DNA of 64,000 nucleotides from Phoronis australis. Its lineage: Eukaryota > Animalia > Phoronida. The stretch covers positions 1,692,601 through 1,756,600 of the forward strand of contig NMRA01000023.1 in NCBI GenBank assembly GCA_002633005.1. The letters run 5' to 3'. Numbering within the stretch: the first letter of the stretch is position 1; each line of letters opens with the position of its first letter. This document shows positions 13,618 through 46,093 of this stretch, piece after piece. The translations under genes were made by a program, and so were the position numbers. The notes beneath the pieces were generated by a model, which was given only the letters and a program-made list of their open reading frames with translations, had not been told where the DNA came from and searched no databases.

Positions 13618-13672
13618 TTTGGTGTTACTCACAATATCTGTGATAATCTGTGAAAGGGTTGTGATTCCCAAC

Positions 13673-15419
13673 TTATTATGCGCCCACATATTTATATGTG
13701 GACGCATTGTGCTGTCATCTCCATCCGTCCAGCGTCCGCTGCTCTATCTCCAAAACCCTTTGACATACGTTCATGAAATTTGGCATATATGTTCCATTCA
13801 TGAATGGGACGGCATGAGCTAACTTTCGGACGGATCCGACTACCAGTGTGCCCCCTAGTGGCAATTTTAGTTTTTTACGCTTACCTTTGTATCTTCAAAA
13901 GTCCTGAACGGATTTTCATGAAATTTGGTGTGTAGGCACCTATTAGTGAGATAACGGTATCCTCCCGTTTTCGGATAGATCCGATGTAGTTTGCGCCACC
14001 TAGTGGCCATTTTTACTGTTTTCAAGTCTGTTTTTTGCGTCCACCCCTCTATCAACCAAACCGCTCAAATGATGATTGTGAATTGGCATGTATGTGCTTA
14101 CTATAAAGAGGACAGTTGACTATGATTTTCCAACGATTTCGACTACTGTGGCGCCTCCTAGTGGCAGTTTTGTTTTGTTGCGCCTATGGCTGTATCTCCT
14201 CAACCGTTCGCAGGATCTTTACTTTATTTAGCTAGTGTATTTATGTGATGTTGGCTACGGATGATGACGACTTTCAGACAGATGTAACTACTGCTGTGCC
14301 CCCTAGTGTCAATTTTAGTTTTTACGTTTAACTCAGTATCTTCAAAGGTACTCAGGGCTGTTCCAGTAAAATCCGTGTGGGAGGGGGGGGGACGGCAGCA
14401 GTAATAAAAATTCATGGGTGGTGGTCTTCAGAAAAAAACTCAAATTATGGGTGGTCGTTCCTGTAAGAAGNNNNNNNNNNNNNNNNNNNNNNNNNNNNNN
14501 NNNNNNNNNNNNNNNNNNNNNNNNNNNNNNNNNNNNNNNNNNNNNNNNNNNNNNNNNNNNNNNNNNNNNNNNNNNNNNNNNNNNNNNNNNNNNNNNNNNN
14601 NNNNNNNNNNNNNGTTTTTGACAATATTGGACAAGACAACTAGTTCTTGTCTGTCAATCATTTAAGTTCTCAACAGGTCCTCCTGGAGGCAATTTGTTTG
14701 CAAGTGTTGGATTTTATATTTTAACCTATTAAAAATAATTAAAAAATTATGGGTCATGGGTTGGAGAAATAAATGAAAAATATGGGCGGTGGGTACGAAA
14801 TAAAAGTGCCTTCCCCCCCCTCCCATACAGATTTTGCTGGAACAGCCCTCAACAGATTTTCATAAAATTTTAAATATAGGCATCTATTGGTGTAATGATG
14901 CTATCTGCCCGTTTTTGTGTGGAATCGAGGTATTTTGCACCTTCTAGTGGCCACTTTTGCTGTTTTCAAATCTTGTTTTTGGTGTCCATCACTGTATCAA
15001 CCAAATCATTTGAAAATTGGCATATATGTTCTCAGTGTGAAGACGACCTTTGATGATGGTGACTGATTACTGTGGCACCTCCTAGTGGTAGTTTTGTTTT
15101 GCGCCCACTGCAGGATCTTTGCTAAATTTAGTAAGTGTATTTATATGAAGATAACAACAGACGACGACTACTTTCAGGTGGATCCAACGGACACTGTGCC
15201 CACTAGTGGCAATTTCATTTTATTCTGTTTTCTTTTGTTTCTCTGAAGTTCCTTGACGGATTTTTATGAAATATGGCATGTTTCTGTTTTTGGATGGATT
15301 GTATGTTTTTGCGCCATCTAGTTTCCTTTTTTTTTTTTTTGATACAAATAAACAACCCTAAAAGCACATCATTTGCAATGCATTCGTGGGCGCATTTTAC
15401 CGCTCCGCGTTGCTCTTGT
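13673..15419 (+). mobile_element. Helentron/DINE-1-like (HINE) interspersed repeat, copy 1, with ~150-bp internal subrepeats
   Basis: Inverted subterminal repeats tatgcgcccac and gtgggcgcat, a gtcc-type microsatellite near the 5' end, and a 3' end gctcttgt. Internal units each carry GCGCCNCCTAGTGG. Colinear with 32490-33780. The family assignment is inferred from structure. Confidence 0.6.
14355..14848. mobile_element. PIF/Harbinger-type MITE inserted into HINE copy 1
   Basis: TIRs gggctgttccagtaaaatc and gattttgctggaacagccc; 3-bp TSD tca. The empty site tactcaacag is visible in the second HINE copy near 33235. Confidence 0.8.
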
Positions 15420-21852: not shown

Positions 21853-22092
<240 letters not shown>

Positions 22093-22107
22093 TAAGTTAA
22101 TGATTTA

Positions 22108-23877
22108 CCATATTCGCCGTAATAACCGCCCATGCCCCTGTAACGCCCCCCACGCGTTTTCAGACTTTGCTAAAGTAACCGCCCAGTCCATGAACGTGTA
22201 CGTGCGAAAAATGTCTTACCTACAGTCCTAAAATTCTACAGTAACATCTTCAATTTATCAATAATATCCGACAGTCCTGAAAAAATCATTGTGCACAGAA
22301 TTTGTAGACCACGAGCCTTGCCGATATGTCGGTATTTAGCCGTGACTATATACTTCAAACTTCCGCCATGCCTCAAAACGAACATAAACGTTCTGCTGAT
22401 ATTGCGAAGACCAATGGTCTGGCCTTTCAGAACAGAAGTAGTGTACTTGTCTATGGGATTGCTTTGTAGATAGGCTATTTCCCGCTTTCAACATGAATCC
22501 AAATTTCTTTGTAGGCCTACACGTGAAATCTGCAAATCGAAGACTAATAAAAAGCTAGGCCAGTGTTAAAAACACGTGGCCAGGAAGCGTGCGCTACATA
22601 CATGAACCTAAAGACATTAGTCGGGAACTATCCATTCATGAAACCGGTAGCATAGCATCGGCAAGAAATGAATGTTGGCACTAATTTCCGACAGTTTCTA
22701 ATACTATAAAAAATGTTTGCGTTATTTTTAAGATGAATTGTTTGATTAACCATAATTGGTGTTTTTAAGCCAAATATCCAATAAAATGACCACTGACAGT
22801 AAATGCTTACACACCCTTACACCGAAAAATAACTGTCAGATAGTCATGTACCCATCCAGCCACACGGAGACTACTATGGCCTTACCAAGGCAAATGTCGA
22901 ACGTTTTTAGCACATGAGACCGGCAAGAGCTGAATGAAACACGCTCTGGTTTAGGCCTACTGCTTGTGTAAATTTCTTTAGATACAATGCACATCTAGCT
23001 CGTTAGATTGCGTGGCTCTGGCCAAAAGACGGTATCTGCTCTGGCAAATGAACTCTGGTGACATGCACGCGCTCGCTGACTCACAAACGCAGACAACTTC
23101 AAAACAAACGTCACGTGACAACAACATGTGTGTTCGTCCACACATTTTTCTCATGTTGCCGATCATACATATAGATGGCACGATGTAGCACAGATTTGTA
23201 CTTAAACCTGCCGTGATCCCAACTCCACAGGAAATTAGAAATCTTAGGAACGCTACTTGGAAAACTTAAGGTAATTTGCTGGAGTCGAAACTGTATTTTT
23301 ATTCAAGCATTCAAGTCGCCATATCGACGATTGCGAGGCAGGCAGTTAGCGAGTTTTCGCCCTGGGATTTCAGCACAATTTTCTGTAAAATGATCATAAT
23401 TTAACAGCAAAGTTTGATAGCAATGCACCACGGTTTTGTAGAAAGTCTTTCATAGCTTATAGATACGTCGCAGCGTAAATATGATGAATCTTAGCTTCCG
23501 ATTTCACCCATTTCGGAGACCGGGGCCCGGTCTCCAATCTCCGTACTCAGACTCGAATCATGCTCAAACTCACACTTCATACTCAACTCGAGTACAGACT
23601 CAGCTTTGGTGTATTCAATGTCATACTCGAAAAATCTGTACTCGAAATTTCGAGCACGTACTCAGTTTTCGAGTGTACTCNAATACGACATTAGATACGC
23701 TTTTTCGAGTACGACTCCAGTGAGCACGATTTTGAGTATGAAATCTCGAGTATGAGTATGAGTCTGAGTACGGAGATTGGAGACCGGGCCCGGGTTTTAA
23801 CGGCCTTGGGTTATAATAAGCGCCCCCCTGAAACGAACTTTTCTAAGCGCCCTGGGTGGTTATTACGGCGAATACGG
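22108..23877. mobile_element. Tc1/mariner (pogo/Tigger-like) non-autonomous element in PP2A intron 10
   Basis: TA|ccatattcgccgtaataaccgccc ... gggtggttattacggcgaatacgg|TA; 24/26 match between the ends including the TA TSD. No transposase ORF. Confidence 0.8.
23524..23790. mobile_element. Harbinger-like MITE nested in the mariner-type element
   Basis: Perfect ~31-bp TIR ggcccggtctccaatctccgtactcagactc; 3-bp TSD cgg on both sides; internal tactc/gagta motifs. Confidence 0.8.
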
Positions 23878-24684
23878 TATGCCACCCACCATAAATTATG
23901 CTTTCCGGGCTGCCCTCTGGGTAATGAAAATTATGTATAAGCTTTAAAGCGTTGAGATTTTGAGCATTTGCTGCTTATGACAATTGGGTTGAAGGTGAAA
24001 TGACCTTGAAGATTGTCTTAATGTTCTGTGAAGTGTATTCAACATGGTTTGACAATCTTGTCATTCAAGAATGGACACGTTAACTTGTTAAAGTACAATG
24101 GTTTGTACCAAGGTTACAGGTTATGTGCACTAACTGTAGTCAGTCTGAAGTGTGAAGGACAGTATGAGCTGAATAGTGCTGATGCAGTTAGTCACCATAG
24201 CTAACTAGGCTATCACTACAAGTTGTAGTGATTGAAGGCCAGCTACCACGGTGCATACAGTACAAGTTATCAGTCATACTATTTTACCATCATGACGGCA
24301 AAAATGAGTGGTAATAACTATTATGGCAGCAAAATAAGTTTTTATATAAAATGTAGTTACCTTACTAACTTTTCTGTCAACTCCAATTCATTCTTGATTG
24401 TGAAGGAAGGCCACTCGGATGGTGAAGAATTACGAGTCATTTTGTCTGAATACTTTTAGGTTGTGCTGTGTGTTAGAGTTTACTCACTCTTGTTTTTTTC
24501 CAGTTAGTGCTAGTTATTTAGTCAAGCCATTTTGTCCATTTCATGTCCAGTCATTTTTTGGCATGTAGTATGGTCCTTTTAGTTACTGTGTTATTTGTTG
24601 CTAGCTGTTAACAATGGTCCTTTTAGTTAATGTGTTTTCTATTGCTAGGTGTTAACAGTAACGGTTGTGCCATTGTGTTCACAG

Positions 24685-24807
24685 GTTATAGGTATTGATC
24701 AGCTGTCTCAGAACCTGTTACCGGCAATAGTTGAACTGGCTGAAGACACCAAATGGCGCGTCCGCCTAGCCATCATAGAGTACATGCCTCTGCTGGCTGG
24801 CGAGTTG
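24685..24807 (+). CDS. PPP2R1A: PP2A A subunit exon 11
   Basis: [41 protein letters not shown]; cacag acceptor, gtgagt donor. Confidence 0.96.
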
Positions 24808-25864
24808 GTGAGTTGGGACTAGTGCTTATGATGCAGCACTTGTCTAGCACTGCTTGGGTTTTTGGTCCAGTTTCCCATTTCATGAAATAAAATCTTAGTC
24901 CCGTTTTATGAAAGTTTGGAGAACAAAATTAAGACTGAAATGGTTTTAGCTCGTCCCTGCTGTGGAGGTGGCTTACACAGACTTGTGCTCTGGATGACTG
25001 TCTCCACTGGTAGCAACTAAATTGTGCTGGATCTCGTTTTCACTGTACTTTACAATATTGTGCCTCGCAGTTAAATTGAAAACTGTTTTTGATTCTGGGC
25101 CGTGCAAAGTACTATAGAGACATTGCGGTGTGATATCTGCACTTAGAAGTGGTATTGTCTGGCTACACCAGTGCTTTCTCCAGTAAGTGACATTACACTT
25201 GTACTATGGCTCCTCGTTGCTGTAAACCATGAGTATTGGATTTCATTTTGTTTTGTGAATTTGCAACAGGTGGTGAAAGCGTAGTTAATTAGCGTGGTTG
25301 ATTAACCATGGCGAAAACTGACTTCATTTCACTGCGAGTTAGATAAGACCAAAAACTAAAAACCTACTTTAGGTTTATGAAATTGTCTCTTCTGAAATTT
25401 CAAGTTTGCTCATAATTTAATCCTAATTTTAGTCTTAATTTATGCAAAGTTGTGGTCATCACTTGCCTTGAAATGGGGTTCCAGAGGGTGTCACTGTGGA
25501 TAATTTCTTCATATGGTTTAAAGTAGCTACAAACCCACCTTCCTTCATAAAAATAGCCTGAGATTGAATCCACTTAATTTCATGAAGTCTGTCAGGGTTT
25601 CCAGGGAATTGGTAGTTTGTTATTGGTTGAGACCAACCTCTGTAAGTTGGCCGGTCTTGACTCGTCATTTTATGCACTGTGTAAGATCCTTCAAAATAAC
25701 CAACTGCCAGTTCAGTACAAATCCATAAAACCTCATCTAACTAATACACAATGTGAGTGTAGGAAAAGGTGACTCATGGGATGGAAGTCATATTTAGAGC
25801 TACTTTGAAGTAAATGTTACACGTACCTCGCAGATGAGTTACAAAATGATTATTTATCTTTCAG

Positions 25865-25925
25865 GGTGTTGATTTCTACAATGAGAAGTTGAATACTTTA
25901 TGCATGCAGTGGCTCGGTGATCATG
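25865..25925 (+). CDS. PPP2R1A: PP2A A subunit exon 12
   Basis: GVDFYNEKLNTLCMQWLGDH; ttcag acceptor, gtaggc donor. Confidence 0.95.
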
Positions 25926-26393
25926 GTAGGCCTTGTTCTTACTCACCAGTTCTCCCCGTGGTATTTCTCTGCTCATCTCATCCTCGGCAAATTGATAAAC
26001 TTCCCTTACATGTTGGTCCACATATACTTTACTATGGTCATAATTTGTTTTATTGTGTTCCATGTCTGTTGTAATGTTGCAGTGGCCCGAGAGAGAACAG
26101 GCATTGAACAAACTTCTATACATTTATTTGAAATAAAAATGCAGAGACATTGTAGAATTTTGTGCTGCGACTACTAAAGTCTTTGAATCTGTCTTCCCGA
26201 TGTCTTTCTTCTGTATTTGAGGTGGAGCGTGTCTGCTGATTGACAATTTTCTGTTCCTACCCCGTATGTGGTCATTTAATGGAGCTGTGTGCATCAGGGA
26301 CACACCTCCGCAGCATTGTTCCCCTGGATAGCAGGCGGACCCTTGCCTGTCCATCAACACTTGTCACCAGGTCTCGTCTCCTCCCACTTGCAG

Positions 26394-26548
26394 TGTTTGC
26401 TATCAGGGAGGCGGCCACCAACAACCTGAAGAAGCTGGTGGAGAAGTTTGGCACCAAGTGGTCGGAGCAGAAGATGATCCCCTCTGTCAAGTACTTGGCC
26501 AACGAGCAGAACTACCTGAAGAGGCTCACGTTTCTCTTCTGTGTCAAT
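26394..26548 (+). CDS. PPP2R1A: PP2A A subunit exon 13
   Basis: [52 protein letters not shown]; tgcag acceptor, gtaagt donor. Confidence 0.95.
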
Positions 26549-26576
26549 GTAAGTCGCTGTGGTTATCTGAGCTGTG

Positions 26577-26795
26577 GGGTAAATAAGCTGTGACCGGTAG
26601 GTCCTGTAGAGATACACTGTATTGGTGGCAGTGGGATGGTTTGGGTTGTTGGGTAAATAAACTGTGATCGGTAGGTCTCATAGAGATACACTGTATTGGT
26701 GATAGTGAGATGGTTTGGGCTATTGGGTAAACAAGCTGTGACCGGTAGGTCTCATAGAGATACACTGTATTGGTGATAGTGGGTGGGGTATGGTT
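26577..26795. repeat. 74-bp tandem repeat, about 3 copies
   Basis: gggtaaa...gagatacactgtattggt units start at 26577, 26651 and 26725. Confidence 0.9.
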
Positions 26796-27643
26796 TCATG
26801 TTAATGTACAGTGGGAATTATTGAATGTCTGCCTAATGATAGTTCAGTCTAATTGTCAATTTGGAGACATTTTAACCATGTAGCTGTGCAATTGACATGT
26901 GTGTGTCCATTGACTGTCTGACTGTATTGGTTCTAACAGCTGTTGTGTGTTATTGTTGCATTACCTATGTTTTTCCAGATTGTAATGCCTGGTTTTAAGT
27001 TTAAGCTGTCACACTGTTTTTTTCAAGCTTGGGGCCTTTTTGTTGCTGCGTATGATTTGAAGCGTGCTGTCAGTTATTGATATATTGATACTGTTTAGTG
27101 GGGTGTGGTTTTGGAATCATTTGGACCCTTTTCACTCTCAAATTGACTGTTTCAGCATAACCACTCTGTAATAATGAAAGTATTAACCAAGCCCTAAAAC
27201 AGGCAGTACCAATATCACTCTTTTCTGATCTCTTTTGTCATGAAGCCATTTGACTGGAGGTAAAGTGTAAGGTTGCTTTGTCCACTGTGACTCAGCTGGA
27301 CCGCTCTCCAAAATTCTTGTACACTATCAGCTCCTCAAAAATTTTCACAGCGCAATGATGATGTAGCAACCTTAACCAATATTCAGTTTCTTGTACCTGT
27401 TAAAGTTGTGGATTTAGAAAACTGCTGCTTGGTAGGCAGAATACTTTAACAGTAAATTGTTATTGCTTGTCAGCATAGGGTGAAACTGGTGTCCATGTTG
27501 CTGTGGTGCTAGTTTCTGTCTGGCTTTGTCAGCGGGTACCTGTTGTACATGTTACTCTCACTCTGTCTTCTCTGCCTCTCTGCACTAAAGCCTGTGGTAA
27601 TAATGAACTTGTGCATGGCCGACTCTCCCGTCTCTATTGGCAG

Positions 27644-27786
27644 GCGCTAGTGGACGTCGTAGACTCAGAAACGTGCATGAAACATCTGCTGCCCTTGGTG
27701 ACTCAGCTGGCCGGCGACAATGTGGCCAACGTACGGTTCAACGTAGCCCGCACCATTCAGCTGCTAGGACCGCTCTGTGACGCAAG
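27644..27786 (+). CDS. PPP2R1A: PP2A A subunit exon 14a (mutually exclusive variant A)
   Basis: 143 nt, phase 0 to 2; ALVDVVDSETCMKHLLPLVTQLAGDNVANVRFNVARTIQLLGPLCDA(S); ggcag acceptor, gtgtgc donor. Confidence 0.9.
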
Positions 27787-28182
27787 GTGTGCTTATAGTG
27801 ATGTCGCTGCCTCTGCAGCTGGTGTTGGGCTTGAATTGGGTGTGCAGTAGATGGCTGGGCTTTATCTTGTGTTGGTGGTTATCTGACGCTTTGTTTCACC
27901 ATTTAGTTTGAATGATGGGTACATTTGCACCCCAAGAAAAATTGTCATTGTGTTCAATGTCAGTTTTGACATTGTGGGTCTGAAAACTACAATCGACTCG
28001 AGACTAAAGCCCATGCCCTATAGCGGTGTTTGTTCACACACGCACACACTGTCTGCCTTGTTCTCTACCTGAATGGTGATAGTGGTAACGGCAGTCCCTG
28101 CACAGCCTGTGTGAACAAACCGCATGCGTGTCGTGTCAGTTTAAGACATGTCACCCAGGTGTGTGCCTTCTCTCTCCCATAG

Positions 28183-28325
28183 GTGATTGCGCAGTCGCTC
28201 AGTGCCGACACGGTCAAAAAGGTGCTGCTGCCAGTCATCGTGCAACTAGCCACCGACCCTGTGGCCAACGTCCGCTTCAATGTTGCCAAGACACTGCAGA
28301 GACTGGCGCCTCTGTTCCCAGAGAG
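28183..28325 (+). CDS. PPP2R1A: PP2A A subunit exon 14b (mutually exclusive variant B)
   Basis: 143 nt, phase 0 to 2; VIAQSLSADTVKKVLLPVIVQLATDPVANVRFNVAKTLQRLAPLFPE(S); polypyrimidine tract with catag acceptor, gtaggc donor. Confidence 0.9.
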
Positions 28326-28889
28326 GTAGGCGGGGCAGCCCCACTCACTTAACTGGTGGGAGGGGCATGCCCCTCTGTTGCCGTGCCCGCCAATAGGTGG
28401 CCTTTCTGTCAGTGGGCATCAATGTGCTGACTCTGCACGAGTTTCATGGATGGTCACCTGTTGATGTTACTTTTGCATATTTTTGCCATTATGTTCAGTA
28501 GTTTTGTTGATCAGATAACGGACTGTTTATTATGTTCCCACATGTACATATGTGGGTGCATATTGCTTTCATATGTGGCTGCATATTGCTGTCATATGTG
28601 GCTGCATATTGCTGTCATCTCTGTCTGGGCTTCCTGTGCTGTAACTCCAAAACCATCAGGACAATCGTCATGAAACTTGACGTATGTATTCCTGCAGTGA
28701 CAATAAATGATGAGGTCCTTGTGGACAGACCTGACTACCTCACGCTCCCAATAGCACTTCTACTATTCTACGTTTGGACAGACCCGACTACCACACGCCC
28801 CCCAATAGCACTTTTAGCATTCTACGTTTGGACAGAATTGACCACCACATGCCCCTCAATAGCACTTTTAGCATTCTACGTCAAACTTT

Positions 28890-29385
28890 TTCAGTGCCAC
28901 CTGGTGGAAATTTCATGCTTCTCTACTTTGTTTTGTGACATCAGCCCTTCCTACCGCTCAAAAGGATCATTACGAGAATTGGCGGATATGTTCATACTGA
29001 CAAATTTATGACCAAGATTTTAATAGGGGTCTGACTACTGTAGTGCCCTCTAGTGGCTAGTTATTATTTTTTCCATCCACGGCTGTATTACCTCAATAAA
29101 CCCTTGTGGGATCCATGTGAAATATGACAGATGGCGACTTACTTTGGATGGATATGACTATCGCTGTGCCTCCTAGAAACAATTTTATTTTGTTTACTCT
29201 TGTTTCTGTATTGTAAGGAGTTCTTGGAGGGATTTATATAAAATTTCGCAAATAGACTACCGCTTCCAATTTTCAGCCAGGCTCAACATACTGCGTCGCC
29301 TAGTTATTTGTATGATACTCCGGTAACAAACAGTCCTAGATGCATAACGTTTGCGGTTCAGTCGTGGGCGCATTTCTTGTTTTTG
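28890..29385 (+). mobile_element. Partial, diverged member of the HINE-like repeat family
   Basis: gtgccacctggtgg and gtgccctctagtggc motifs; 3' end gtgggcgcatttcttgtttt. Confidence 0.5.
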
Positions 29386-31342
29386 TTAAATGATATAGAC
29401 TAATAGTAGTACTCAATTGAATTTGCAAAATTCTGTTTACATTATTGTTTTACCTCAAGGGTCGTTATACGGAAATATACTAGGCTCTTGGAAAGAGATT
29501 TCAAAAGGAAATTTCTGTCCTCTCCAAATTTTGTAGGCATAAGACAATTAGAATTGGAAAGTGTTTGAAGTGATGGGTCTACATTAAGTAATAAATTCAA
29601 TTGCTTTTGTTTCACAAAATTGGTTTCATTTGAGTAAAAGTTTTTTCATGTTAACCTCAATATAATTATTGCAGGAGTAGATGTGCCCGCCCCATTTTTA
29701 TTCAGATAGTCGGTGGCTATGTTCTTTTTCTGCCTATGACATATCTCTCAAATGATGAATCACTCTTTCATTAGCTGGGCTTCTCACACTGTGCGCTGTT
29801 AGCCTAGCTTTTGTAAAAATGCCTGTGCCGTGTATGTGTGGGTCCCAGTCAAAGGACATTGACTGAACGTATATAATAAACTCATAATGGTTACAAACCC
29901 AAATTCCATCAACAAAATAATTATTGATTTAGACCACTTAACATTATGAAATCGGTCTCCTTTGTCAACTTGGGTGTCATATCTGGGCTGGCAAAGCACT
30001 GAAAACTTGTTATTGATCAAGACCAAGTTGTACAAGTTTACTTGTCGGGGGCATGATCTTGAGGAATAACAAAATGTCTCTTTGAAAACCCAAAAATCAC
30101 TAAGGAACAGGTCAAGACCTATTTTATAGTTGTGACTGATCTAAAAATAATGTTCTTTTGTTGTATGGAATCCAAGGTTGTTGCCATTAGTAAATTTGTT
30201 ATTCCTTGCTCGTCAAACTTGGCTTGATGCCAATTAGGAACCCAGAAATGAACTTAATTTCTTAGAATGAGTCCTTGAAAAATTTTTCTTGTTTCTGTGC
30301 TTGGCACAATTAACACGCCGTTTAACTGAGCACTGGCGTTGTTTACAACCCACTGCTTTGATGAGTATTAATAGAAACTGTGGCCTTGCCTCATAGCTAG
30401 CTATGGTTTCTCAAAATGTATACGTGTAGTATGGGGACTAGAAGTATGTGCTGTAGCCAGGGTCGCACTCGTGAGTAAAGCTTGTGTGGTCAAGTGCTTC
30501 ACTTGTTATTCAAGGCCACGTTTCTCAAAGACTTGCCTGATCTTGTTTTTCTTGCAAGAAATTTCTGTACGAAATGCAAATGTGTCCTTAGGCAGTCCAC
30601 AGACGTTCTCGCCAACAATGCTCTTCAGCCTTGATGTTTTCATTTCTTTCCTCATGAATCGCAGTTGTACCCGATTGTAGTTCAGGTGATTTCATCTATG
30701 GTGCTGCTGTTTTTTATATTTTTGTCGTCTTGTACACATCTGGTGAACACTAAGTGTCACTTAAAAGCACAGGATCTCTGCAACACGCTTTATTGTGAGT
30801 ACCACTAAGAAAGTATCGTACAAACATAAAACGCTGAAACTGAGCCTCATATTGCATTTCACTGAATTAGATTAGAGAATGATTTGCACGAAAACGTCTT
30901 CAAATATCTGCCATTTCTTCACGCTGAAATCAAATCTTACTACTGAAACACAAATTATAAATCAGTTTACACATCACAAATTATTTGTGATGTCCTCTGA
31001 AGCTGACACAATGCACTTAAAAATGATAGCTGTACTGTAAATGAAGTCCCTCCAATTGACAGATGTATGTATGTATGGATACTTACTGTCGGTACTTGTG
31101 GTCCTTGACCATGAGAAAAGAAAACTTGTTAAAAAAGACCTGTATTGATGACAGAGGTAGCCTGTGAATGAGGACCCCTGTGTGGTTGTGAGGTAGGGAG
31201 CTCACTGTGTACAACACTCACCTAGATTTGGGGGGGGGAGTTAGGAAGCTGTGGCCATAGGCTATCCATTCCTCTGTTCACGTCACAATCACCTGTTGTC
31301 TGGTGTTGTGTTAACTCATGACATTCTTTTGTTTGTCCATAG

Positions 31343-31434
31343 TACAATTAACGGTCAGATCAAGCAAGTATTGGACAAGTTAAAGCAGGACTCTGATACG
31401 GACGTCAAGTACTATGCGGAGGAGGCCATGGACA
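31343..31434 (+). CDS. PPP2R1A: PP2A A subunit exon 15
   Basis: (S)TINGQIKQVLDKLKQDSDTDVKYYAEEAMD; catag acceptor, gtatgt donor. Confidence 0.95.
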
Positions 31435-31936
31435 GTATGTATACACTTGCTACACTACAAGACAAAAGTAATGCAACAAAATATCATTTTTTATGGTGAC
31501 CACAAATTCTGTTGACATAAAAACATTATGGGTAATAACTGTTAAGACGGCAAAATTTTTGTTAATTTCTCTTCCTTGTCAGTCATCAGAGAAGACTTCT
31601 CTGACACTGACTTCAGCTTCCGCCTTACTGTCATGTCTGAAACTCCGATTCATTTTGTCCTGTACTGTATGTTGTCCACCTGATGTATTGGTGTTCAGTG
31701 TGTAGCAGTCGTGCAGGCTTGATGAAGTGCCTGCCAATGTTGCACTAAAGCTGATTTCTTGTTTTTTGACCTAGTATCGTCTGAAGTAGTCTTTCAGTGG
31801 TATTGCACTGCCTAAAAGTAAAACTTGGAAAGCAGTCTTTTTAGATTGTCTTGCTAAATATTTATGTGAATCAAAGATGGTGCTTTAGTGTGCCAGCTTG
31901 TTACTGTGTCTGACATGTTTCTGTTGTTTCTTACAG

Positions 31937-31956
31937 GTATGAAGTTAAGTACGTGA
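31937..31956 (+). CDS. PPP2R1A: PP2A A subunit last coding exon
   Basis: tttcttacag acceptor; (S)MKLST then TGA; AATAAA about 230 nt downstream. Confidence 0.8.
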
Positions 31957-32188
31957 AATGTAAATCGTCCTTACAAAGTTATCCATGTCGTATATTGGAT
32001 AGATACAGAACTCTGCCTTAGAAGTCTTCTCTGAGCGTCTCTTGACCAGCTGGCAGTTAATAAGAAAAAGAGGAGAACATTAAGTCCCGTCAGGGCACCT
32101 GAACTGTTAGGGTGAATTCACTGGATAATGGTTCTCTCAAAATTGTAACACCGTTTGTTTATTGTAATATTTTGTGTATGTAGTAGTG

Positions 32189-32194
32189 AATAAA
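32189..32194 (+). terminator. Candidate polyadenylation signal for PP2A-A
   Basis: AATAAA preceded by TGTA motifs and followed by GT-rich sequence. Confidence 0.55.
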
Positions 32195-32489
32195 TAATGT
32201 ACTGTGGACGTGGTTAGACTTTGAATTCCCATTTTTGGAGTAAGCCTCGGAGATTTAATGTTTTGGAAAATTTGTGCACTCTGTGGAGTGCCTAAACATT
32301 TGCTGGCAATTGTGCCTTTCGCATTTGCCTATGTCTGAAGTAGGCCCATGCCCCTAAACTTTTACTTGTCACACCATGTTCATAAGTGTTTGAATTCGGT
32401 TACCAACAGTTTTGGTAAGATGCAAGTGGCTGTCTCTCCAACGTGTTTTAAAGTGGGCGGTTTTTGCTTCTCTTGTCAGTTTCTGGTGA

Positions 32490-33780
32490 TTTTTATGTGC
32501 CCACATATTTATATGTAGACGCATTATGCTGTCATCTCTGTCTGGCGTCCGCTGCTCTATCTCCAAAACACCTTGACGTATGTTCCTTTTAATTTTGCAC
32601 ATGTGAGCGAACTTTCGGACGGATCCGACTGCTGGTGTGGCCCCTAGTGGCAATTTTAGTTTTTTACGTTTACCTTTGTATCTTCTAAAGTCCTGAATGG
32701 ATTTTCATAAAATTTGGTAAATAGCACCTGTTAGCAAGATGACGCTATCCTCTTGTTTTCGGAGGGATTCTACGTATTTTGCGCCACCTAGTAGCCATTT
32801 GTACTGTTTGGTATACAGGCATCTGTTAATGAGTTGACGATATCTCTCCATTTTCATATGAATTCGACCTAATTTGCGCCATCTAGTGGTCATTTTTACT
32901 GTATTTGAGTCTGTATTTGGCGTCCACTCGTTTATCAACCAAACCGCTTTCAGGATAATTGTGAAAATTGGCACGCATGTTTTTACTTTGAAGTGGACGG
33001 CCGACTGTGATTTTCCGACGAGTTTGACTACTGTGGCGCCTCCTAGTAGCAGTTTTTTTTTTGCCCTCATGGCTGTATCTCCTAAACCGTTTACAGGATC
33101 TTTACTTAATTTAGCAAGTGTACTTATGTGGTGTTGACAACGGACGACGACGACTTACGGACGGATTTGACCACTGGTGTGCCCCTTAGTGGCAATTTTA
33201 GCTGTTTACGTTTACCAGTCTGTATCTTCAAAGGTACTCAACAGATTTTCATAAAATTCTGAATATAGGCATGACGTTATCATCCTGTTTTGAATGGAAT
33301 CTAGGTATTTTGCGCCACCTAGTGGCCGTTTTTTGCGTTTTCAAATCATTCTGGGGATGGTTTTGAATATTTGCGTATATGTTTTCAGTGTGAAGAGGAC
33401 GTTGATGGCGGCTGACTTCTGTAGCGCCTCCTAGTGGTAGTTTTGTTTTGTTTTGTTTTGTTTGCCCCCATAGCTGTCTCCAAAACCCACTGCAAGATCT
33501 TTTTTAAATTTAGTAAGTGGATTTACATGAAGATAGCAGACGACTTTTCAGGCGGATCGAACGGTCGGTGTGCCTACAAGTGGCAATTTCGTTTTCTTCT
33601 GTTTTCCTTTGTTTCTCTGAAGTTCCTTGACAGATTTTTATGAAGTATGGCATATGCCCGTTTTAGATGGATTGTACGTTTTTGCGCTAGCTAGTGGCCA
33701 TTTTTATGATACAAATAAATAACCCTACGAGCACACCATGCATTCGTTGGTGCATTTCAACGCTCCATGTTGCTCTTGTT
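32490..33780 (+). mobile_element. HINE-like repeat, copy 2 (uninterrupted)
   Basis: Colinear homology with 13673-15419; about 9 degenerate GCGCCNCCTAGTGG motifs. Confidence 0.65.
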
Positions 33781-36513: not shown

Positions 36514-36986
36514 TCACGCCTTGTTCTTTTTCCCGCCTTTTTTTCCGCCCTTTTTCCCACCCTTCTTCGACCGTGATTTCCGCTTATTTTTCCTTTCGTT
36601 TTTCTTGTCGCCGCCTTTCGTCGTACCATCGACCATTGTCTCGTCCAAAGCCTCTACGCCACCCTCGCAAAGGTTCTTTTTCTTTAATTTCCTTAAAGCT
36701 TTGCGAAGATTTTTAAATAATGTCGGGTTCTTTTTCTTCTTGGGCCACAAGACGGCGTACGTGGCTACTATTCGATCGCCCATCCTTTTACCCATGATCA
36801 CTTGAGTATCACCTTTGCTCACTCGTTTGCACTCGCACCCCGGATCTCCGTCTACTACGAGTTTAAATTTTCGCAAGTCTGATTTGGTCAAACTTTTATC
36901 TTTCTTGTAAAACTTCTTCTTTCTCAGCGTGGAAATGACGATGCCCTTGTCTGACGACGTCACGTCTTTCACCTTCACCCGGAGAA
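36514..36986 (-). CDS. SFRP1/2/5: sFRP1/2/5 exon 3 (NTR domain plus basic tail)
   Basis: ttgtag acceptor; VLRVKVKDV...GCEC...VIMG...W...LC then KKGGKKGGKKGGKKNKA and TGA; minus-strand AATAAA at about 36459-36464. Confidence 0.9.
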
Positions 36987-39900
36987 CTACAACGAATATA
37001 ATAATCACAATTATTGTCGTGACGGGAATAAATTCGGGGGGGTGCTCTCGTGTGAAAGAGGTATACGGGAAGTGCCGCACAGAAGGGTGACTTTTTCACG
37101 AACAATTTTCCTACGAAAGCTTACACTGCTGACAATTTGGTAATTCGCAACTATAAAAGACTAGTTTTCCAACAATGATGCTATCATTTTTCCCAACATA
37201 GCGTCTTTTTTGTAATGTTCCAGTCTTAATGGGTTGACATTAAGAATCCCTACGAAAAGAACTTAACTTGTCTGGTGTATTTTGAACAACTCCCTACGAA
37301 CGAGTACCCGTTTTTCGAGTCCACTCTCTGAATGGGTAGAATCCCCATTTTCCAGTTGCAGCCCCCGTCAAAAATATAATCACGTACTCCCCCGGAAAAA
37401 ACTAGTTGCTACAGTCTGCGTACTCTAATCGACCAATGGAAGTTAGATATACCAATTAAAGAACCAGCCTCTGGTTCTTAAATTTAGATCTGGGCCGGCA
37501 AGGCAAATAAGCAGTAAAGACAGTCATAAAATGTTTAAATTCTAACTTCTCAACGGTAAAATTTAAAATTACAAATGTGTCTATGAAGTGTAGATATTTT
37601 GTTCAATGTCCAATTATGGTAATCGCTTGTCGGAGACCCCCCGATTACGGCCCGGATTACTGTCGCGTCGTGGTTGCCAGTGACACGCAACTGAGGTGCG
37701 TGAATCCCTCAACTCGTTTCAAAGGTTCCATATCAAAATGTAAGACTGCAGAAAATAAAACAGATTTACGAACCGAACAAATAAATTTGATTTGCCAAGC
37801 CTTGGGGCCATACACGGGGATCAGGTTAACACTGGGGTTTGTCCGGTGGCGAAATATGACGTTGTTTGGTAATTGTATTTTGTTTTGAACCTAGCGGTTT
37901 GAACTTCCTTCAACGCATGCTGAGAGAAGCAATAACAAAAACGTTCAGCAAATCAAAAGTTAGGCTCTCAAGTTGAAATTTGTAACATGTCCATTCAAAA
38001 TGGCGCTTTACACATGTGTTTCATCATCCTTTCTTCCCAGAAACGAGTCATGAAAATAATGCGCTTTTTGATGTCACACCATCTCTAAAGTCGTGATATT
38101 ACGTAACAACCACAGACGTATGAATTCTGCTTCAGTGTTTTGTTATGTGAGAGATACTTAAGTTTATGCCTTTTAAACAGCTATCACTGAACTTAAAAGG
38201 ATTCTATTTCCGTTACCGATAAGAACATTGAAACCATAACTTAGGAAAACGCTTCAGAGTTAATTGGGGTTGGACAACCCTAAACTTGGGGATTCTAAAA
38301 TAGTACGTGTATGCATCACCCGTGACTTGAGTTGCCGGATCGTCTTTGACAATAATTCAAAAGCAGAAGTGACTGTCAGGCCGCTGGGGCGAAAAAACTT
38401 TTAGACAGTCGCAAAAGTTATCGAGCCCATAGACTACCCGTAGTCTCCATTTTGAATGTGTCATCTTGGTAGCTAGAAACGAGGCTGGCGTATTCGTGGA
38501 TCAATATTTGAACGTTTGGACGGAGTATCGGCGTCTCGGCGACCAACGCACAGGTGGACCCGAGATGGGCGCCTCGACCAACGCACAAGTGGACTCTAGA
38601 TACGCGCCTCGACCAACAAGTGGACCCCCGAGGGTTTTTGCAGAAATCTCCTTATCAATATTGCAGCGAGATGTCGCTTCTCTTTATTGAAGAGTACACC
38701 CAACTATAATAGGATAAGTAATCTCTTTTGATTCAAACTATCTCGGCGAGAAAAGTGATTTTGCAGAATTGAGCAGCACTTTCTCCGCAGTAGCAACCAA
38801 ACGCTCTGCCGCTGAACCAACTTCCACGCATTAAGTTATGTTAAACCTATTTAAAAGATAACGACTCTGATCTTGCTTTCAGCGAATATCTGGCAGATAA
38901 CGGCGAGAATTGGGAATATGTAACAAAATCGAAAATGCAACGGATTTTGTTGTTTTAAAGCTCTGGTCAACGCTAACAACTTCAAGAAATCCATTCAACA
39001 AAATCCGTTTTCGTCCGTAAACCCGATAATTTCCATTTAAGTGTCTCGTGATATATCTCATTGTGATGAGTTAAATAAAGTAACCCAAGTCTCAGCTAAG
39101 AATGCTAGAGTTCGCTGCGCCGAATCCGTTACCACCCAAAAGTTCACTGGCCGGTGAAATCAAGCGGATCAGGTTGCCTTTAATTTACTGTATGTTATTA
39201 GCCTTGTAAGATTTCCCATTCAATTACTGCAACTTTTTGGAATTCAATTTTATAGCTCTTTTGTCCTTGAGACAAACAGAGAGCCACGCCAGTTACCCGT
39301 CTTAGAAATGTTTTAGGTACAAAGGTCATAGACACACGGTGGACGTGTGTGAGAAAATCTCGTTTTATTTTTTACAATAATAAACATCTTTTGATGTGTA
39401 GTAATACGAGATATTTATGTGTTTATAACTTTTTCCCTGAAAACATAATGGGTAAGCTTCTAAGCCCATCATAGACGATTAACAACTTATCTCGCACACC
39501 TACACCCACTTCGCACAGATCGTGCTATCGTTGAATTTTTCGCGAAACCTATTCTGTTTACCTGACATTTTCAAGGGAAGCTTTTCCGAACTCATAGTTT
39601 AAACACTGTAAACCGCTTCTGACATCCTATTTCAAAAGTGTCTAAGGTGGTTAATTACAAGTCAAGCAGCGCACGTGCTGCGACAAACATCAGCTTGTTA
39701 GTTGCTTTAGTTCGAAAGACGATATGTTACATGTCTGGTTCGCCGTTGAAATAATTAAAACGGATGGTTAGTTTTGATGTATAGATCTCTATTCCCCAGT
39801 CGCAACTTAGTCTTCGGAATGTGGAAAATTACGCGACAGAACCAAGCAACCAAACGGAACTCTTGTTCGGCGGTAACCCTGAGGGCAAAGCGAAATCAAG

Positions 39901-40390
39901 TTTCATCTAGAAGACATCTCTCTTGCTTGTTTACAAGTGCTCAGTTCAGTGATATGTAAAATACCTCGTAAAACATGAACCGTTTTGAAAACTGCTCAAC
40001 AGATCATTAAAGCAATCAACTGCATCCAGCATTTACTGATTTAGCTTTTGTGAAGTGTAATACTTTATAGAGCCAACCCGCCGTAAAACTAACCTATAAC
40101 TTTCAAACTTCATGCTTACAATACATATACTTGGTGCAAAATGTATAACATTTTCCATTTCGGCGTACACCGGTTTTGCCTCGTTTTCATACATACTAAC
40201 CCAGGAATCGCGAGGTTTTAACCTTGTTATGAACATCGACAGAATTGAACACAACACGACAACAATTGTTACCATTTAAAACAGTTGTTTTAAAAAGTCG
40301 TTTAGGTAACGAAGTTTTATAGGTGAACAATTTACGCAAACAGCCAGGACTACCAGCCGTAAATGTGATATTTTGGACTGAGAGGTAAAA

Positions 40391-40534
40391 CATAAGCGGA
40401 CTCAGAGGGGTCGAGAGGTCCTAAACGTCCTCCCTTCCGCGGCTACTTGTGTATTGTAGAACTGAAGGAATGAGAAGTGTCCCCTATTTGTCCATTGTCA
40501 GACCCGCGTGGGCAGAATTCTAGATCCGCTCCTG
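40391..40534. mobile_element. Small MITE of the CA(G/T)xGGCGGA family with ~5-bp TSD
   Basis: cataagcggactc ... gatccgctcctg; flanks taaaa and taaat. Confidence 0.55.
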
Positions 40535-40585
40535 TAAATGTTTTTGTCGTGCAAATATTACTGTCGAGACTGATGCGTGACTTAC

Positions 40586-40666
40586 CGAAATCTGCTCTAC
40601 AGTAGTTGTCAATGATTCCCTCATACGTGTCGGGTTCAGCGCACGCCCTACACTCGTTCTGGACGC
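40586..40666 (-). CDS. SFRP1/2/5: sFRP1/2/5 exon 2
   Basis: 81 nt, phase 1-1; RVQNECRACAEPDTYEGIIDNYCRADF (CxxC...C.xDF start of the NTR domain); ttgcag acceptor, gtaagt donor. Confidence 0.93.
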
Positions 40667-43600
40667 CTGCAATGAAAAATATTGTTTTTCTAATACCAAT
40701 GGAGTTTTTGATTTGCTGTCCAATACCACTACCAAACAGAAAACGAAGTCGGTCACAGTGGTTTTCAGTAAGTACAACTACACTGGGATATTTCATATGT
40801 TGGTATAAGCGGTCAATATTTGGAATTATGAACACCGATACGACAGCCGCTGGTAGGTGTTTTGAACTGCATAATCTTTCGAAGTCATATAATACTTACT
40901 ATTATAAGCAAAATGTTATATCACGGTATTTCTAGTATTTAGTGTCGGCTAAAAAGCTGCCAAGAGCTGCAATGAGAGGGGAGCACTGGACAGGTGCCCC
41001 AAACTAATATTCACCCACAATTCGTGACCGGGACGAGGGCCGAAAAGAGTAAGCTACCCGGGAAACGAGGAATTTGGAAATTGGTGGGGACCAAGGGGCG
41101 GTGGGCGATTGGATGGTTTTTGACTAAGTTAACGTGTCTGTACTTCAGCAGTTTTTACCTTTCTACGTGCCCATTATCGTCTCGCTAATTAACTACTATG
41201 GCCACTTAACACTGGAATTCCAATGTCTGATATTAACCTCTGGTAGGTTAGGCCAGAGAAATGTGTGATGGGGAATACTGCTGGACGCAACAACGCAGAA
41301 GCCAATTCACAAACATGTACTTGGAAAAAACGATTTGTGAACAGCGCACGCATAAAATACACAGGCCATACTAAACCATGGCCATTAGTTTGGCGGTGTT
41401 GATTTGGAAAATCTGTTGTGCGATTTAATGCGTACAGCAAGTAAAACTGCTATTAGGAGTAGATTTCAGAACGTCTTTATGCAGTGCTTGGTTCGCTATT
41501 ATTCTGCTACATATGGAAGTACGTGATCAGGATGACAACGATCTACAACGCCCTCTGAAACAGCCTCTAAAATAATGGAATTATAGTTTAAGCGATTTTT
41601 GTTGCTATAAAGTTAGTTTTGTCTTGCCCCTTACTCGGTTTAGAAGTGATTTCTGTCTCCGTGACCTGAAATCTTCTGAAATTAATGTGAAGGAATAACG
41701 AGTTGTCAATACGTTGTGACGTAACAGTCTTGTGTTAAGGTTCGCTTTAGCATTTTGCAAGTAACAGAAAAAAAATCTTTTTAATTATTAATCGACTCTT
41801 TCAAGTGTTCATTCCATGACAACCAGAAATTGGTTGTCAAGAGTTTGTGCCTCCCCGATTAAGCACGAAAAATATATAAACGAAAACAATTTATGTGAAG
41901 AAATCACTTCTCAAGTGAGTAAGGAACAAGTTAAGACTCATTCTAAAGCGGTAAAATTCAATTTCTTCCACAAAACGTGGGTACATTGCCACTATAAACT
42001 CTATCGAAGAAAATTATTCGAGAAATTTCCCGCAATGCGATCTCATTATAGCCCTACTTGTGAAATGCCAAACGAGGAAAGTACGTTCATTACTTAGGAA
42101 AACTATTCGGCCACTCATTTTCCTTTTTAACAAGTCAACATCTGATCATCTTCGAGTACTACATAAGTATATACCAAGTATTTCGGATTCCGAGTGTATA
42201 TAATTGACCTGAATTGGTGTCAACAATTAACGATAACACAGGTGTCGCAAAGGTGACATTTCGGTAAAAATGTGTGTCGCGTCAGTTTATGCTGCCAAAC
42301 ACGGCCATGCCTGTTTTTCACACATCAGAAAATGTTCTCATTTCTATTAAGATGTGAATGTCACACGACGAATTATCGTTAATACATCCAATAAATCAGC
42401 ATTATTTGTAATAACGAGAAGCCGTTCCCGGCCAGCGAATCGATCAACTGTTGGCTCAGCCAAATGTCTGGCGGTGGTACTTCTTGGTCTAAACGGCGAC
42501 GAATACATAAAAGAAAACGACGAGGATATTTATCTAAATTAAGTGCAATCCCTACACTTTCAATTTCACCAATATAGTAACACTAATACCTGAACCACTC
42601 AGCGATATTCGTCTACCGACGCCAAGCACTCGAATGTTTTCTTAAGAAAGTTCGTGTCAAAATAACAATCTACACCTTCAGACTACGACATGCTTGATAC
42701 AGCGGTGGTTAGCATGCTTTTTATGCAAATACAATTAGTTGCACTTTGGTGTGAGCAAGAAACCAGTATAGCCACCACCAACTGAGGTAGTGCATAACAA
42801 AAATGAAGTTCCATCCCGCCAAATGTCGCGGGGGTAACCCTAGTCGACATATCCGGCATTAGAATAATTATCGAATTAGCCCCAAACTCGCCGGGAAGAT
42901 GTCGAAATGTTTCCCCTGGTTAGATGTCACGCGTCCACACTGAACACCATTAGCATTCCTTGCACAGCACGGGTTACAAGACCGAAATGCAGTCCCTCGA
43001 TGAATTTGTCTGTCGGAATTTGGGAGACGTTTTATCTCCCAGACACACAATACACCAGCCAGAATCGTATTTTGTTCAGCCAGACAATGGCATTATTAAT
43101 CAGATAGAATAGACTGCTAAATTTAGAAAAAATGCAATTGTGACGCGTCAGGTTTCGAGTCTGCTTCAGAAAAGTATCAAAACACTGTGAGTTATGGAAA
43201 ATGCCTGAAAGGGCTTCTGGGCAACAAACATTCAAAGCTTGTTAATATTGTGACTGGTCTTTTCATCGCTCGTGCCAAATTAAAGCATCCGTAGACATTA
43301 ATGTACTTTCAAGGCCTAACACAAAAGACAATTGGGTCTCGTTCGGCCACAGGCAAATTACTCGTCAGGTGTCGCGTACTCATTATGTTTACTCCATAAC
43401 GACCGCCGTTATAACAACCAGGGTCCGCTAAAACCTGCCAGCAATTACGTCACGGCGCAAATAACATCGACCTGCAGCGATTAGAAAACATTTCTGTTTT
43501 TAAGTGGATGTCAGGTCAACTTAAACTTCTCTGCGTAAAAAGAGTCTGGTAAACCAATGAGAAACAATGCTGAACAGGTTTCAAATACATCAATTTGGTA

Positions 43601-45460
43601 GGAGTCATAAAAACGAAACAGTTGGGTCAACTTTGCCTGCGTTACCGTTCGAAAGCCCCAATTCTGTTTTCCCAGTAGAGGAGATTTGTGGTTGTACAAT
43701 AAATGCACATATCTGAATTTCACTTCACTTTTGATATCAGACCACCACAGGAGCGACGCACTGGTTTTTTAAATGCACCTCTCTAAAAGAATGCAAACAT
43801 TTCCATCCACGTGCAACTTATCTAATCAATTCTTTGTAAAGGAATGCATTCACATTCTGCATGTGTTCGCTAGTCAAAAAAACTGTCCTACGTCACTTTT
43901 AAGATTGCACATCTCAACAATTTTGTTCGGTGGTTGAAAAGGAAATACTTTTCCAAGGCATGGTACAACTATTAACGAATTTAAAATCATTACTTATTAC
44001 TATATATATAATGTCATTGGGTCTTAACACACGGGAATAGCTTTTTAATTATACAATACTACTATTTTGTAGCAAATATTAGATTATCATTTCGCAATAC
44101 AATAAAACTTTTGGTAATAATATGAAAGCTAATCAGTTGTTCAGAATTGATGAATGGATCGTAATGTTAGCAAAAATTGATTGTCTTGGAACGACGCTCT
44201 TGAAGAGGATAATATGGGGTGTATAGAAACGGCCTCTATGTGTACTGAGCAACAATTTGACTTTTATTGTCTTCAACTTTTTGAATGACTCACCAGCTGT
44301 ATAGACGTTAGACAAACTTTTCACTAAAGTTTAAGTTTAAGTTAAAATCTTAGTATATGTACCTGGTCATAAATAAATAAACGTCACATGCGTGAGAAAT
44401 AATTCGCTTGGTCTTGTCAGTGCGCCAGACAGCGAGACGCGCTAATTGAATCCCATTTTTTGCTCATTAACCTTTTCAGAGAATAAATTCTAAATTATGG
44501 ATTACACTTGCGAGTTGAACGATAACATTTTCTTATCACTTCTACGTTCTATACGACGGAACATTGTACACGGCACTTTGATGAAAATGGGACAACGTTA
44601 GCACAGAACATATGACACATAACTAACGTTCCCTGTCTGACAGGTTGGACTCTTTAGGCAAGATTAGATTGTGAATCACTGTGTTAATACGGACAATACA
44701 GTGTCTGGTTCCCATTTTAATGTAATTTTCTAGATGAGAACAACTCATTAAGCCTGCTTGTGTCAACATCACATTATTAACATCATACGCCAGTTCACAT
44801 ACATTGGGGATTCAGCGAGTACAATCTGTTCAGTCCCGATGTTCAGCTCTGCATCTCAGGTATACACGATGTGCTAACTAACCTTGGCCAACTGCCTGAT
44901 CACAGCCGGCGGTAACATCAAGGGGACTGTCATAATGAACTCGGCGATTATTAATTTTTATTCTGTCAAAGTCCAAAGCGAAGCAAAAACTCCTTTCATG
45001 CTCAACAAACACAAACAAATCAATCACCAAGAATTGTCAGACGCCACTGATAAGGACGCTACTCATAAAGTGAGCCGCTGTGGTATGTACAATACATTGG
45101 ACATGATTTAAACCGATTACTTGCATACGGGTTGGTTTTCGGATTTTCTCAAACTCTTGACTTTTTATTAGTCTAACTCTGAATATATAGACGTAAATTT
45201 TGTTCAGGTGAATGGAAAAACACACCTTTGTAAATTAATGTCTGTGTTAATGGCTGACTGACCGATTTAACAAAGCCCTGTTGTGGCTGATAACTGAAAT
45301 CCCATGCGAACATAAGTGAACTGGAAATTGCATCAAAAGCTCCATACTTAAATAACGTCCAATCCTTTTTCTACCGACAGCGCGTTAAATTATTTTTCAC
45401 ATACAAAACATATATTAATGAAAGTTTAAGATCACACAATAAACATGAAGTAATACGTAC

Positions 45461-45971
45461 GTGTCTCGTTCATATTCGGGGGTCGAATGCACAGATCATT
45501 TTCTTCAGGAAACTTATCACACTTCAACATTTCTGGCCAGGGGAAGCGATATTTACTCATCGTCGACGCACAACCGGCTTTGACGGCTTCGCACAAAGAT
45601 CGACAGGGCCATATCAGACGCTCACTGTCCGATTCAAGGCAAATAGGCGAAAACAGGGAACACAGGAACAGTTGTGTATTAGGGTGACATTGCACCCCCA
45701 GCAGGGGCACCCACGAACCCGCCTGCGTAGTCACTTCCGTCAGGGTGTCGTGTTCAAGTAGGTTCGGCAATCTCATCCTGTGGTATCCAATATTTTGACA
45801 CAAAGTCAAGTTGGAAGGAATATCTACACATTTTGGATGATAGACTCTACCACTAAGTAACGCCAAGTCCGTTCCCCAGTCGTTGATCCTACTGTAGGAA
45901 ATACTGGCACACACTCCAGTCAGCAGAAATATCGTTGACGAACACATTACTAGTTTCCTCATGACGTCCAT
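45461..45971 (-). CDS. SFRP1/2/5: sFRP1/2/5 exon 1 (signal peptide plus Frizzled CRD)
   Basis: Hydrophobic N-terminus; 10-Cys CRD (CVDIP..LC.NIGY..MRLPNLL.H...WVPLL...CH..TQLFLCSLF.P.C...PCRSLC..V...C...M....FPWPEML.CDKFP..NDLCI), typical of the sFRP1/2/5 clade; donor gtacgt. No TM helices follow, so it is not a Frizzled receptor. Confidence 0.95.
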
Positions 45972-46093
45972 TCTAGCTACTTATTTTGCCCTGCCTTGCT
46001 CGAACTAAAATTTGGTGGCCCGCGAACTGCTGCCGAACAGGTGTACACGGTCGACGTTGGTTGACTATTTAAACGGAGTAGCGGGTGAAAGCG

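Follow-up and report, generated by a model that had tools for sequence, protein, structure and literature searches.

The diversity of PP2A is usually credited to its B subunits, with the scaffold (A, PR65) subunit regarded as the fixed part of the enzyme. Vertebrates make two scaffold variants per organism, A-alpha and A-beta, which belong to the same 15-HEAT family, are encoded by two genes (PPP2R1A and PPP2R1B) and differ along their whole length (86% identical according to the accessible part of PMC12129040). The catalytic (C) subunit binds HEAT repeats 11-15 on the side of the intra-repeat loops, and repeats 13-15 form a rigid block (PMC1945078, available in part; binding to HEAT11-15 is also given in the accessible part of PMC12129040). 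Duplicated, mutually exclusive exons are a well-known kind of gene architecture, and their frameshift class is exemplified by PKM exons 9/10 (167 nt, frame 0-2), which share equal length, phases, homology and structural segment, have a length not divisible by three, and are characterized by bridging junctions that are present and a joining junction that is absent (available portions of PMC5740500 and PMC8373072). In PMC5740500, 60% of the human exclusive-exon clusters have a length that is not a multiple of three. Among molluscs and worms, housekeeping genes with a duplicated, alternatively used exon include oyster AOX (PMC5589949) and coq-2 (PMC7434440), and the accessible text of both papers reports a functional switch. 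In other systems, e.g., ATE1 (PMC7797038) and those following the docking/selector model (PMC6071210), exclusion is controlled by RNA structure, as described in the parts of these papers that were available.

No exclusive or duplicated exons in the PP2A A subunit were reported in the full-text literature searched, a scope outside which most subscription papers lie. PPP2R1A/B are absent from the supplements of two human catalogues (PMC8373072 and PMC5740500), in which the positive control PKM was found, and from the supplements of PMC9741552 and PMC7954323 (the full event list of the latter is on a web site). Nothing on such an exon pair stands in the accessible parts of PMC13247117, PMC12129040, PMC12733044 and bioRxiv 2025.11.26.690749, and what PMC2941758 says of PPP2R1A is limited to its first intron. 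Exclusive exons in this subunit, of which the preliminary description knew no report, thus appear to be undescribed as far as the literature searched and the two human catalogues go.

Here we describe such a pair in Phoronis australis. The window analysed is a stretch of 64,000 nucleotides of contig NMRA01000023.1, and all positions refer to it. A PP2A scaffold (A/PR65) gene extends on the forward strand from ATG to stop over 10810-31956, with 16 exons per transcript, 591 encoded residues, and AG/GT at every junction of the exon model. Exons 1-13 share 84% identity with the scaffold of the pearl oyster (Pinctada) over 507 columns, and all 20 PDB matches of the two alternative exon peptides are PP2A A chains or entries of PP2A complexes. 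By homology, the gene encodes PP2A scaffold subunit A, a protein of ~590 residues with 15 HEAT repeats, and its product would be expected to bind C and B subunits. Junctions from exon 12/13 onwards have read support; the earlier ones come from sequence and homology. The read depth of ~130 per 1.8 billion letters fits a main housekeeping copy of PP2A-A. The last exon (31937-32200) contains six codons, the stop codon (31954-31956) and the 3' UTR with AATAAA at 32189. An AG-flanked open stretch in intron 15-16 (31583-31690) is a candidate alternative last exon, with no reads in support. Tail to tail with the PP2A gene, a secreted frizzled-related protein gene with a lysine-rich C-terminal stretch occupies 36514-45980 on the minus strand. 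Words resembling CCACCTAGTGG recur in a dispersed repeat family, which is found at 13660-15400, 28590-28640 and 32500-33760 and is also transcribed elsewhere, as seen from many loose read ends at 28594-28634. Short tandem repeats are located at 26568-26795 (74 nt x3), 28547-28627 (23 nt x3) and 28722-28881 (54 nt x3).

Between the constitutive exons 13 (26394-26548, human A-alpha 456-506) and 15 (31343-31434, HEAT15), both supported by junction reads, lie two forward-strand copies of exon 14, designated 14a (27644-27786) and 14b (28183-28325). Both are 143 nt long, run from phase 0 to 2, have AG/GT ends and are open; the coordinates and the identity of 23 of 47 residues given in the preliminary description were confirmed. 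In DNA, 79 of 143 bases (55%) are identical, with 30/47, 31/47 and 16/47 identical by codon position. The copies find each other by tblastn with E ~1e-11, while other HEAT exons of the gene reach E 0.002 or weaker, and no other scaffold exon has a second copy within the 64-kb window. As in the frameshift-class catalogues, the pair combines equal length, phases, homology and a common structural segment; the difference is the host gene, a PP2A scaffold, which is in neither human list. Either exon alone gives 591 residues in the exon model. With both included, translation stops after 555 residues, 231 nt before the last junction, and with both skipped after 509 residues, 83 nt before it, in agreement with the early stops that had been predicted for both-in and both-out transcripts.

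The duplication appears to be old, and sequence comparison indicates that both copies are retained as protein code under purifying selection, because dN/dS between them is ~0.32 and the flanking introns align only weakly. The Nei-Gojobori values are pS 0.66, pN 0.38, dS 1.6 and dN 0.52 (Fisher p 0.002). Third positions are near saturation, and the flanking introns are effectively unalignable, with alignment scores of 20 for the upstream and 26 for the downstream pair (the upstream introns, when shuffled, gave a median of 18 and a 95th percentile of 23). The old duplication under purifying selection suggested earlier is supported by this check, the ratio being not near 1. The notion that one copy arose by misassembly, is allelic or is a dead exon is hardly credible: the gene models P0324 (deer) and P0218 (tree shrew) contain the segment twice, so that false duplicates of this exon do occur, but the copies described here are only 55% alike in DNA (79/143), both bear the mark of purifying selection and both are spliced in all three raw RNA-seq runs, and the junction reads given below already refute it. 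The double HEAT14 motif in deer, with identical copies, and in tree shrew likely represents assembly or annotation artefacts.

One study provides three raw, stranded RNA-seq runs (X2, X3, X4) under the label of the same species; ~18-19% of each run was read and mapped to 26300-32300. Junction 13-14a was covered by 27, 23 and 20 reads in X2, X3 and X4 (70 in total) and 13-14b by 74, 72 and 91 (237), while 14a-15 had 50, 39 and 27 (116), 14b-15 had 94, 68 and 114 (276), and 15-16 had 88, 60 and 74. At a threshold of 3 reads from 2 starts, neither a 14a-14b nor a 13-15 joint was present in these runs, which bounds skipping at ~3% of exon-13 donor reads and 14a-14b joining at ~6-11% of 14a donor reads per run. 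Scaffold RNAs carry 14a or 14b, exclusively. Under the validation rule in the accessible part of PMC5740500, the bridging reads are 13-14b (237) and 14a-15 (116), seen in all three raw runs, with no joining reads at the threshold given; a frameshift or stop upon joining, equal length, same phases, homology and a common structural segment, listed there as well, are all found. The mutual exclusion asserted in the preliminary description was hence seen as four productive junctions and no 14a-14b joint, and the exclusive junctions together with the exon model support its prediction of two 591-residue isoforms from one gene. A further data set, X1, is a set of contigs guessed to be RNA; it carries the 14b form alone, and contigs drop variants.

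Exon 14b is the major and 14a the minor copy, with a ratio of ~3:1. The pooled share of 14a is 23% at the upstream junction (70/307) and 30% at the downstream junction (116/392). Use that changes with tissue or stage had been proposed, and the runs lend weak support to use that depends on the sample: downstream, 14a made up 35%, 36% and 19% in X2, X3 and X4 (chi-square p 0.003), with X4 lower, but upstream the values were 27%, 24% and 18% (p 0.30). X4, the run low in 14a, also differs in intronic alleles. In our reading, tissue or stage probably influences the balance between the copies.

The introns around the pair (26549-31342) have a read depth of ~3-30 in all three raw runs, compared with ~none in the last intron (15-16, 31435-31936) and ~60-145 in bins covering constitutive exons, and are possibly slowly spliced or detained. 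This depth would be expected if the pair mainly set the amount of scaffold, with slow splicing of the flanking introns and occasional frame-shifted products leading to retention or decay, and both mis-spliced forms would meet the 50-nt rule for nonsense-mediated decay. We nevertheless consider dosage control very improbable: the comparison has one control intron only (15-16), no mis-spliced joint appeared at the 3-read threshold, and both copies keep the full protein-coding signature.

The choice of one copy is probably made at the splicing step, where RNA hairpins around 14b may assist; as the length of 143 nt is not divisible by three, nonsense-mediated decay would probably provide a second safeguard. 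Joints that are absent from steady-state RNA fit splicing control and decay alike. The intron between the copies (27787-28182, forward strand) is, with its 396 nt, outside the steric-hindrance class, in which donor and branch point are less than ~50 nt apart; its AG-free zone measures 22 nt, and branch candidates are ~355-367 nt away from the donor. In one model only, the path from donor to branch point would be reduced by folding to ~43-56 steps. No U12-type site is present: the donors are GTAAGT, GTGTGC and GTAGGC, the acceptors AG, and none of the three donors fits the U12 donor consensus. The intron is predicted to fold more stably than 100 of 100 shuffles (z -3.2), with three stacked hairpins (27854-28016, 28023-28123 and 28128-28154) that span ~300 of the 396 nt and have helix probabilities mostly >0.85. 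Directly 3' of the 14b donor, two further hairpins of 17 bp each are predicted on the forward strand at 28332-28423 (mean pair probability 1.0 and 0.87). The intronic windows adjoining 14b rank as the top 2 of 39 in the gene for structure (41 windows tiled, 2 dropped for N, 12 shuffles each), a ranking noticed after the fact, and one of these two includes a palindromic tandem repeat. The hairpins around 14b are offered as a lead only on the mechanism. In its predicted hairpins and long-range helix, the region of the pair resembles ATE1 and the docking/selector systems (PMC7797038 and PMC6071210, parts available), but the search around 14a/14b gave no docking site for which two selectors would compete: at the splice sites, the strongest duplexes reached -24 to -33 kcal/mol (-16.5 at the exon 15 acceptor), within the range of 40 random 30-mers (-16 to -35 kcal/mol), which none of them beat. 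A 12-nt inverted repeat between the 14a acceptor and 28385-28396 was no better than chance and was discarded. The long-range helix, predicted between 27528-27557 and 28439-28465 (13+8 bp, probability >0.9), would loop out both exons and might arise from the borders of the stretch chosen for folding.

We compared the gene with scaffolds of other animals. A quick tree built from exons 1-13 and 35 further proteins places it on a long branch within a nine-row mollusc group (SH-aLRT 95); the tree labels Haliotis, Littorina and S. purpuratus are presumed from the accessions. Exon 14a shares a motif with three sea urchin proteins; an echinoderm affinity considered on this basis was dropped in view of the grouping with molluscs in that tree, and the idea that urchins have alternative exon copies found no support in the urchin clusters and isoforms compared. 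No close relative was present among 373 proteins (the top 120-150 matches per homologue search), in which the best identities were 36/51 for exon 13, 29/47 for 14a and 26/47 for 14b. These came from three homologue searches plus one of representatives, with thirty clusters opened at up to 15 members each; some alignments of exon peptides to full-length proteins were misregistered across HEAT repeats and were left out of the analysis. The pairwise comparison, which did not extend to the primate A-beta cluster, took in isoform sets of amphioxus, abalone, periwinkle, Lingula, one urchin, ticks, flies, mosquitoes, sawflies and crabs, and in none of these sets does the HEAT14 segment vary. Annotated PP2A-A isoforms of other animals likewise arise by alternative splicing of the same gene, but in those compared the variation is confined to the first exon, the last exon or short inserts within the protein and spares HEAT14. 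Same-length isoform pairs of sawflies, examined as candidate exclusive exons, differ in the last residue only.

Six residues are common to 14a and 14b yet off the animal consensus, and one of them is found in 1% of homologues; both copies also lack the Cys-Gly at 512-513 that is present in >90% of 150 homologous segments. Because of the six common departures, the sequences suggest that both copies descend from one exon that had already changed in this lineage. An exon tree (47 columns) cannot place the copies and does not reject a 14a+14b clade (p-AU 0.76). The duplication is probably restricted to this lineage. Unusually fast evolution of both copies was considered, but it is weakened by an excess over mollusc-mollusc divergence of 1.5-1.6 fold, like that of most exons. 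As a separate observation, exons 10-13 (21879-26548), which encode the hinge and some of the repeats that bind the C subunit, are 85-99% identical between molluscs, yet 2.5-5.7 times more diverged here (small counts).

Both exons align to human A-alpha 507-553 (matched residues 510-552 for 14a and 513-551 for 14b) and are predicted to form a helix at exon residues 8-22, a loop at 23-27 and a second helix at 28-44 (pLDDT 88.8 for 14a and 88.0 for 14b; the two predictions used the same homologue alignment and are not independent). The segment had been described as HEAT13/14; it does lie in the HEAT region, but comprises nearly all of HEAT14 with the seven preceding residues rather than half of each repeat. 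The copies differ at all seven positions ahead of helix A, at eight of its 15 residues, at two of five in the intra-repeat loop, at none of eight in the first half of helix B, at four of nine in its second half and at all three of the tail, so that 15 of the 24 differences fall before or in helix A. From 533 to 541 the two copies have the same residues. Across the 150 homologous segments, conservation is higher at the positions that 14a and 14b share than at the others (0.81 vs 0.64, p 0.006), a contrast that is partly by construction, as the segments were chosen by their central motif. The segment has a net charge of -2 in 14a and +2 in 14b, and two cysteines in 14a versus none in 14b.

No paper naming the HEAT14 interface residues was found in the literature searched; the C-interface residues given in the available part of PMC11141623 lie in helix 2. 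From this arrangement we infer that 531-541 form the C-subunit contact ridge of HEAT14 and, judging from the predicted structures, the ridge facing the C subunit is likely almost unchanged between the isoforms. A direct change in C affinity is less likely than first proposed, because the start of helix B differs at none of eight positions and 15 of 24 differences precede the loop. That the swap directly tunes C-subunit affinity, as in the preliminary description, is in line with the location of the exon inside the C-binding repeats HEAT11-15 (PMC1945078 and PMC12129040, parts available) and with differences beside the ridge at 530 (G/T), 532 (N/P) and 542 (R in 14a, where 97% of homologues have K); set against the identity of 533-541 and the position of most differences, this seems unlikely. 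The companion idea that the swap alters scaffold flexibility is weakened as well, since HEAT13-15 are described as one rigid unit, with the hinge placed at repeats 12-13 (accessible parts of PMC1945078 and PMC11141623). TIPRL binds repeats 2-6, outside the swapped exon, and its site is untouched by the swap (PMC5741625, part available).

The reading that we prefer, tentatively and with not quite an even chance of being right, is that the tandem HEAT14 exons, used one per RNA, would give two 591-residue scaffolds that share the catalytic-subunit ridge but not the helix at its back. Both scaffolds would likely bind the C subunit through the same conserved ridge, and the HEAT13-15 block would likely differ between them in how it packs, how stable it is or what surface it exposes on the outside; the exclusive splicing is observed, and the effect on the protein is proposed. 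The parallel with A-alpha/A-beta drawn in the preliminary description stands insofar as two scaffold variants are encoded, but it is loose. A-alpha and A-beta differ at 8 of 47 positions in the exon-14 segment, and 14a and 14b at 24 of 47, three times more; the copies do not sort into alpha-like and beta-like, giving no one-to-one mapping, and, coming from one gene, have all 24 differences in one repeat, with the B-subunit-binding repeats 1-10 identical. Compared with oyster AOX and coq-2, the difference is the functional switch reported for those genes in the accessible parts of PMC5589949 and PMC7434440.

Against two functionally distinct scaffolds it may be held that the differences are tolerated drift, as exon 14 is anyway the most variable exon of the gene among molluscs (65% identity, seven sequences). 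The copies would then be interchangeable, each used part-time and both kept because losing one would cost a share of an essential protein. We judge this rather unlikely, yet worth serious consideration: both forms occur together in all three raw runs (14a 18-36%, 14b 64-82%), the differences sit at less conserved positions and the copies fold alike in prediction. However, 24 of 47 differences with a four-unit charge shift amount to three times the A-alpha/A-beta difference in this segment, one run (X4) differs in ratio, and homologous mutually exclusive exons have been reported to alter surface residues near functional sites (excerpts of PMC7954323). A bolder extension of the two-scaffold reading is that this lineage made the scaffold a regulated part, with a conserved, tissue-controlled HEAT14 swap yielding two core enzymes that behave differently and intron folding bringing donor and branch point within the steric limit; we hold this to be decidedly unlikely.

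The splicing mechanism is ordinary, and what appears to be new, in one species so far, is the gene that hosts the exclusive exons, where such a pair is apparently unreported. Two expressed scaffold mRNAs whose encoded proteins would be identical save for half of the HEAT14 residues represent a clean natural experiment on the role that the non-contact face plays in the C-binding block, and on the amount of change that one PR65 repeat tolerates.
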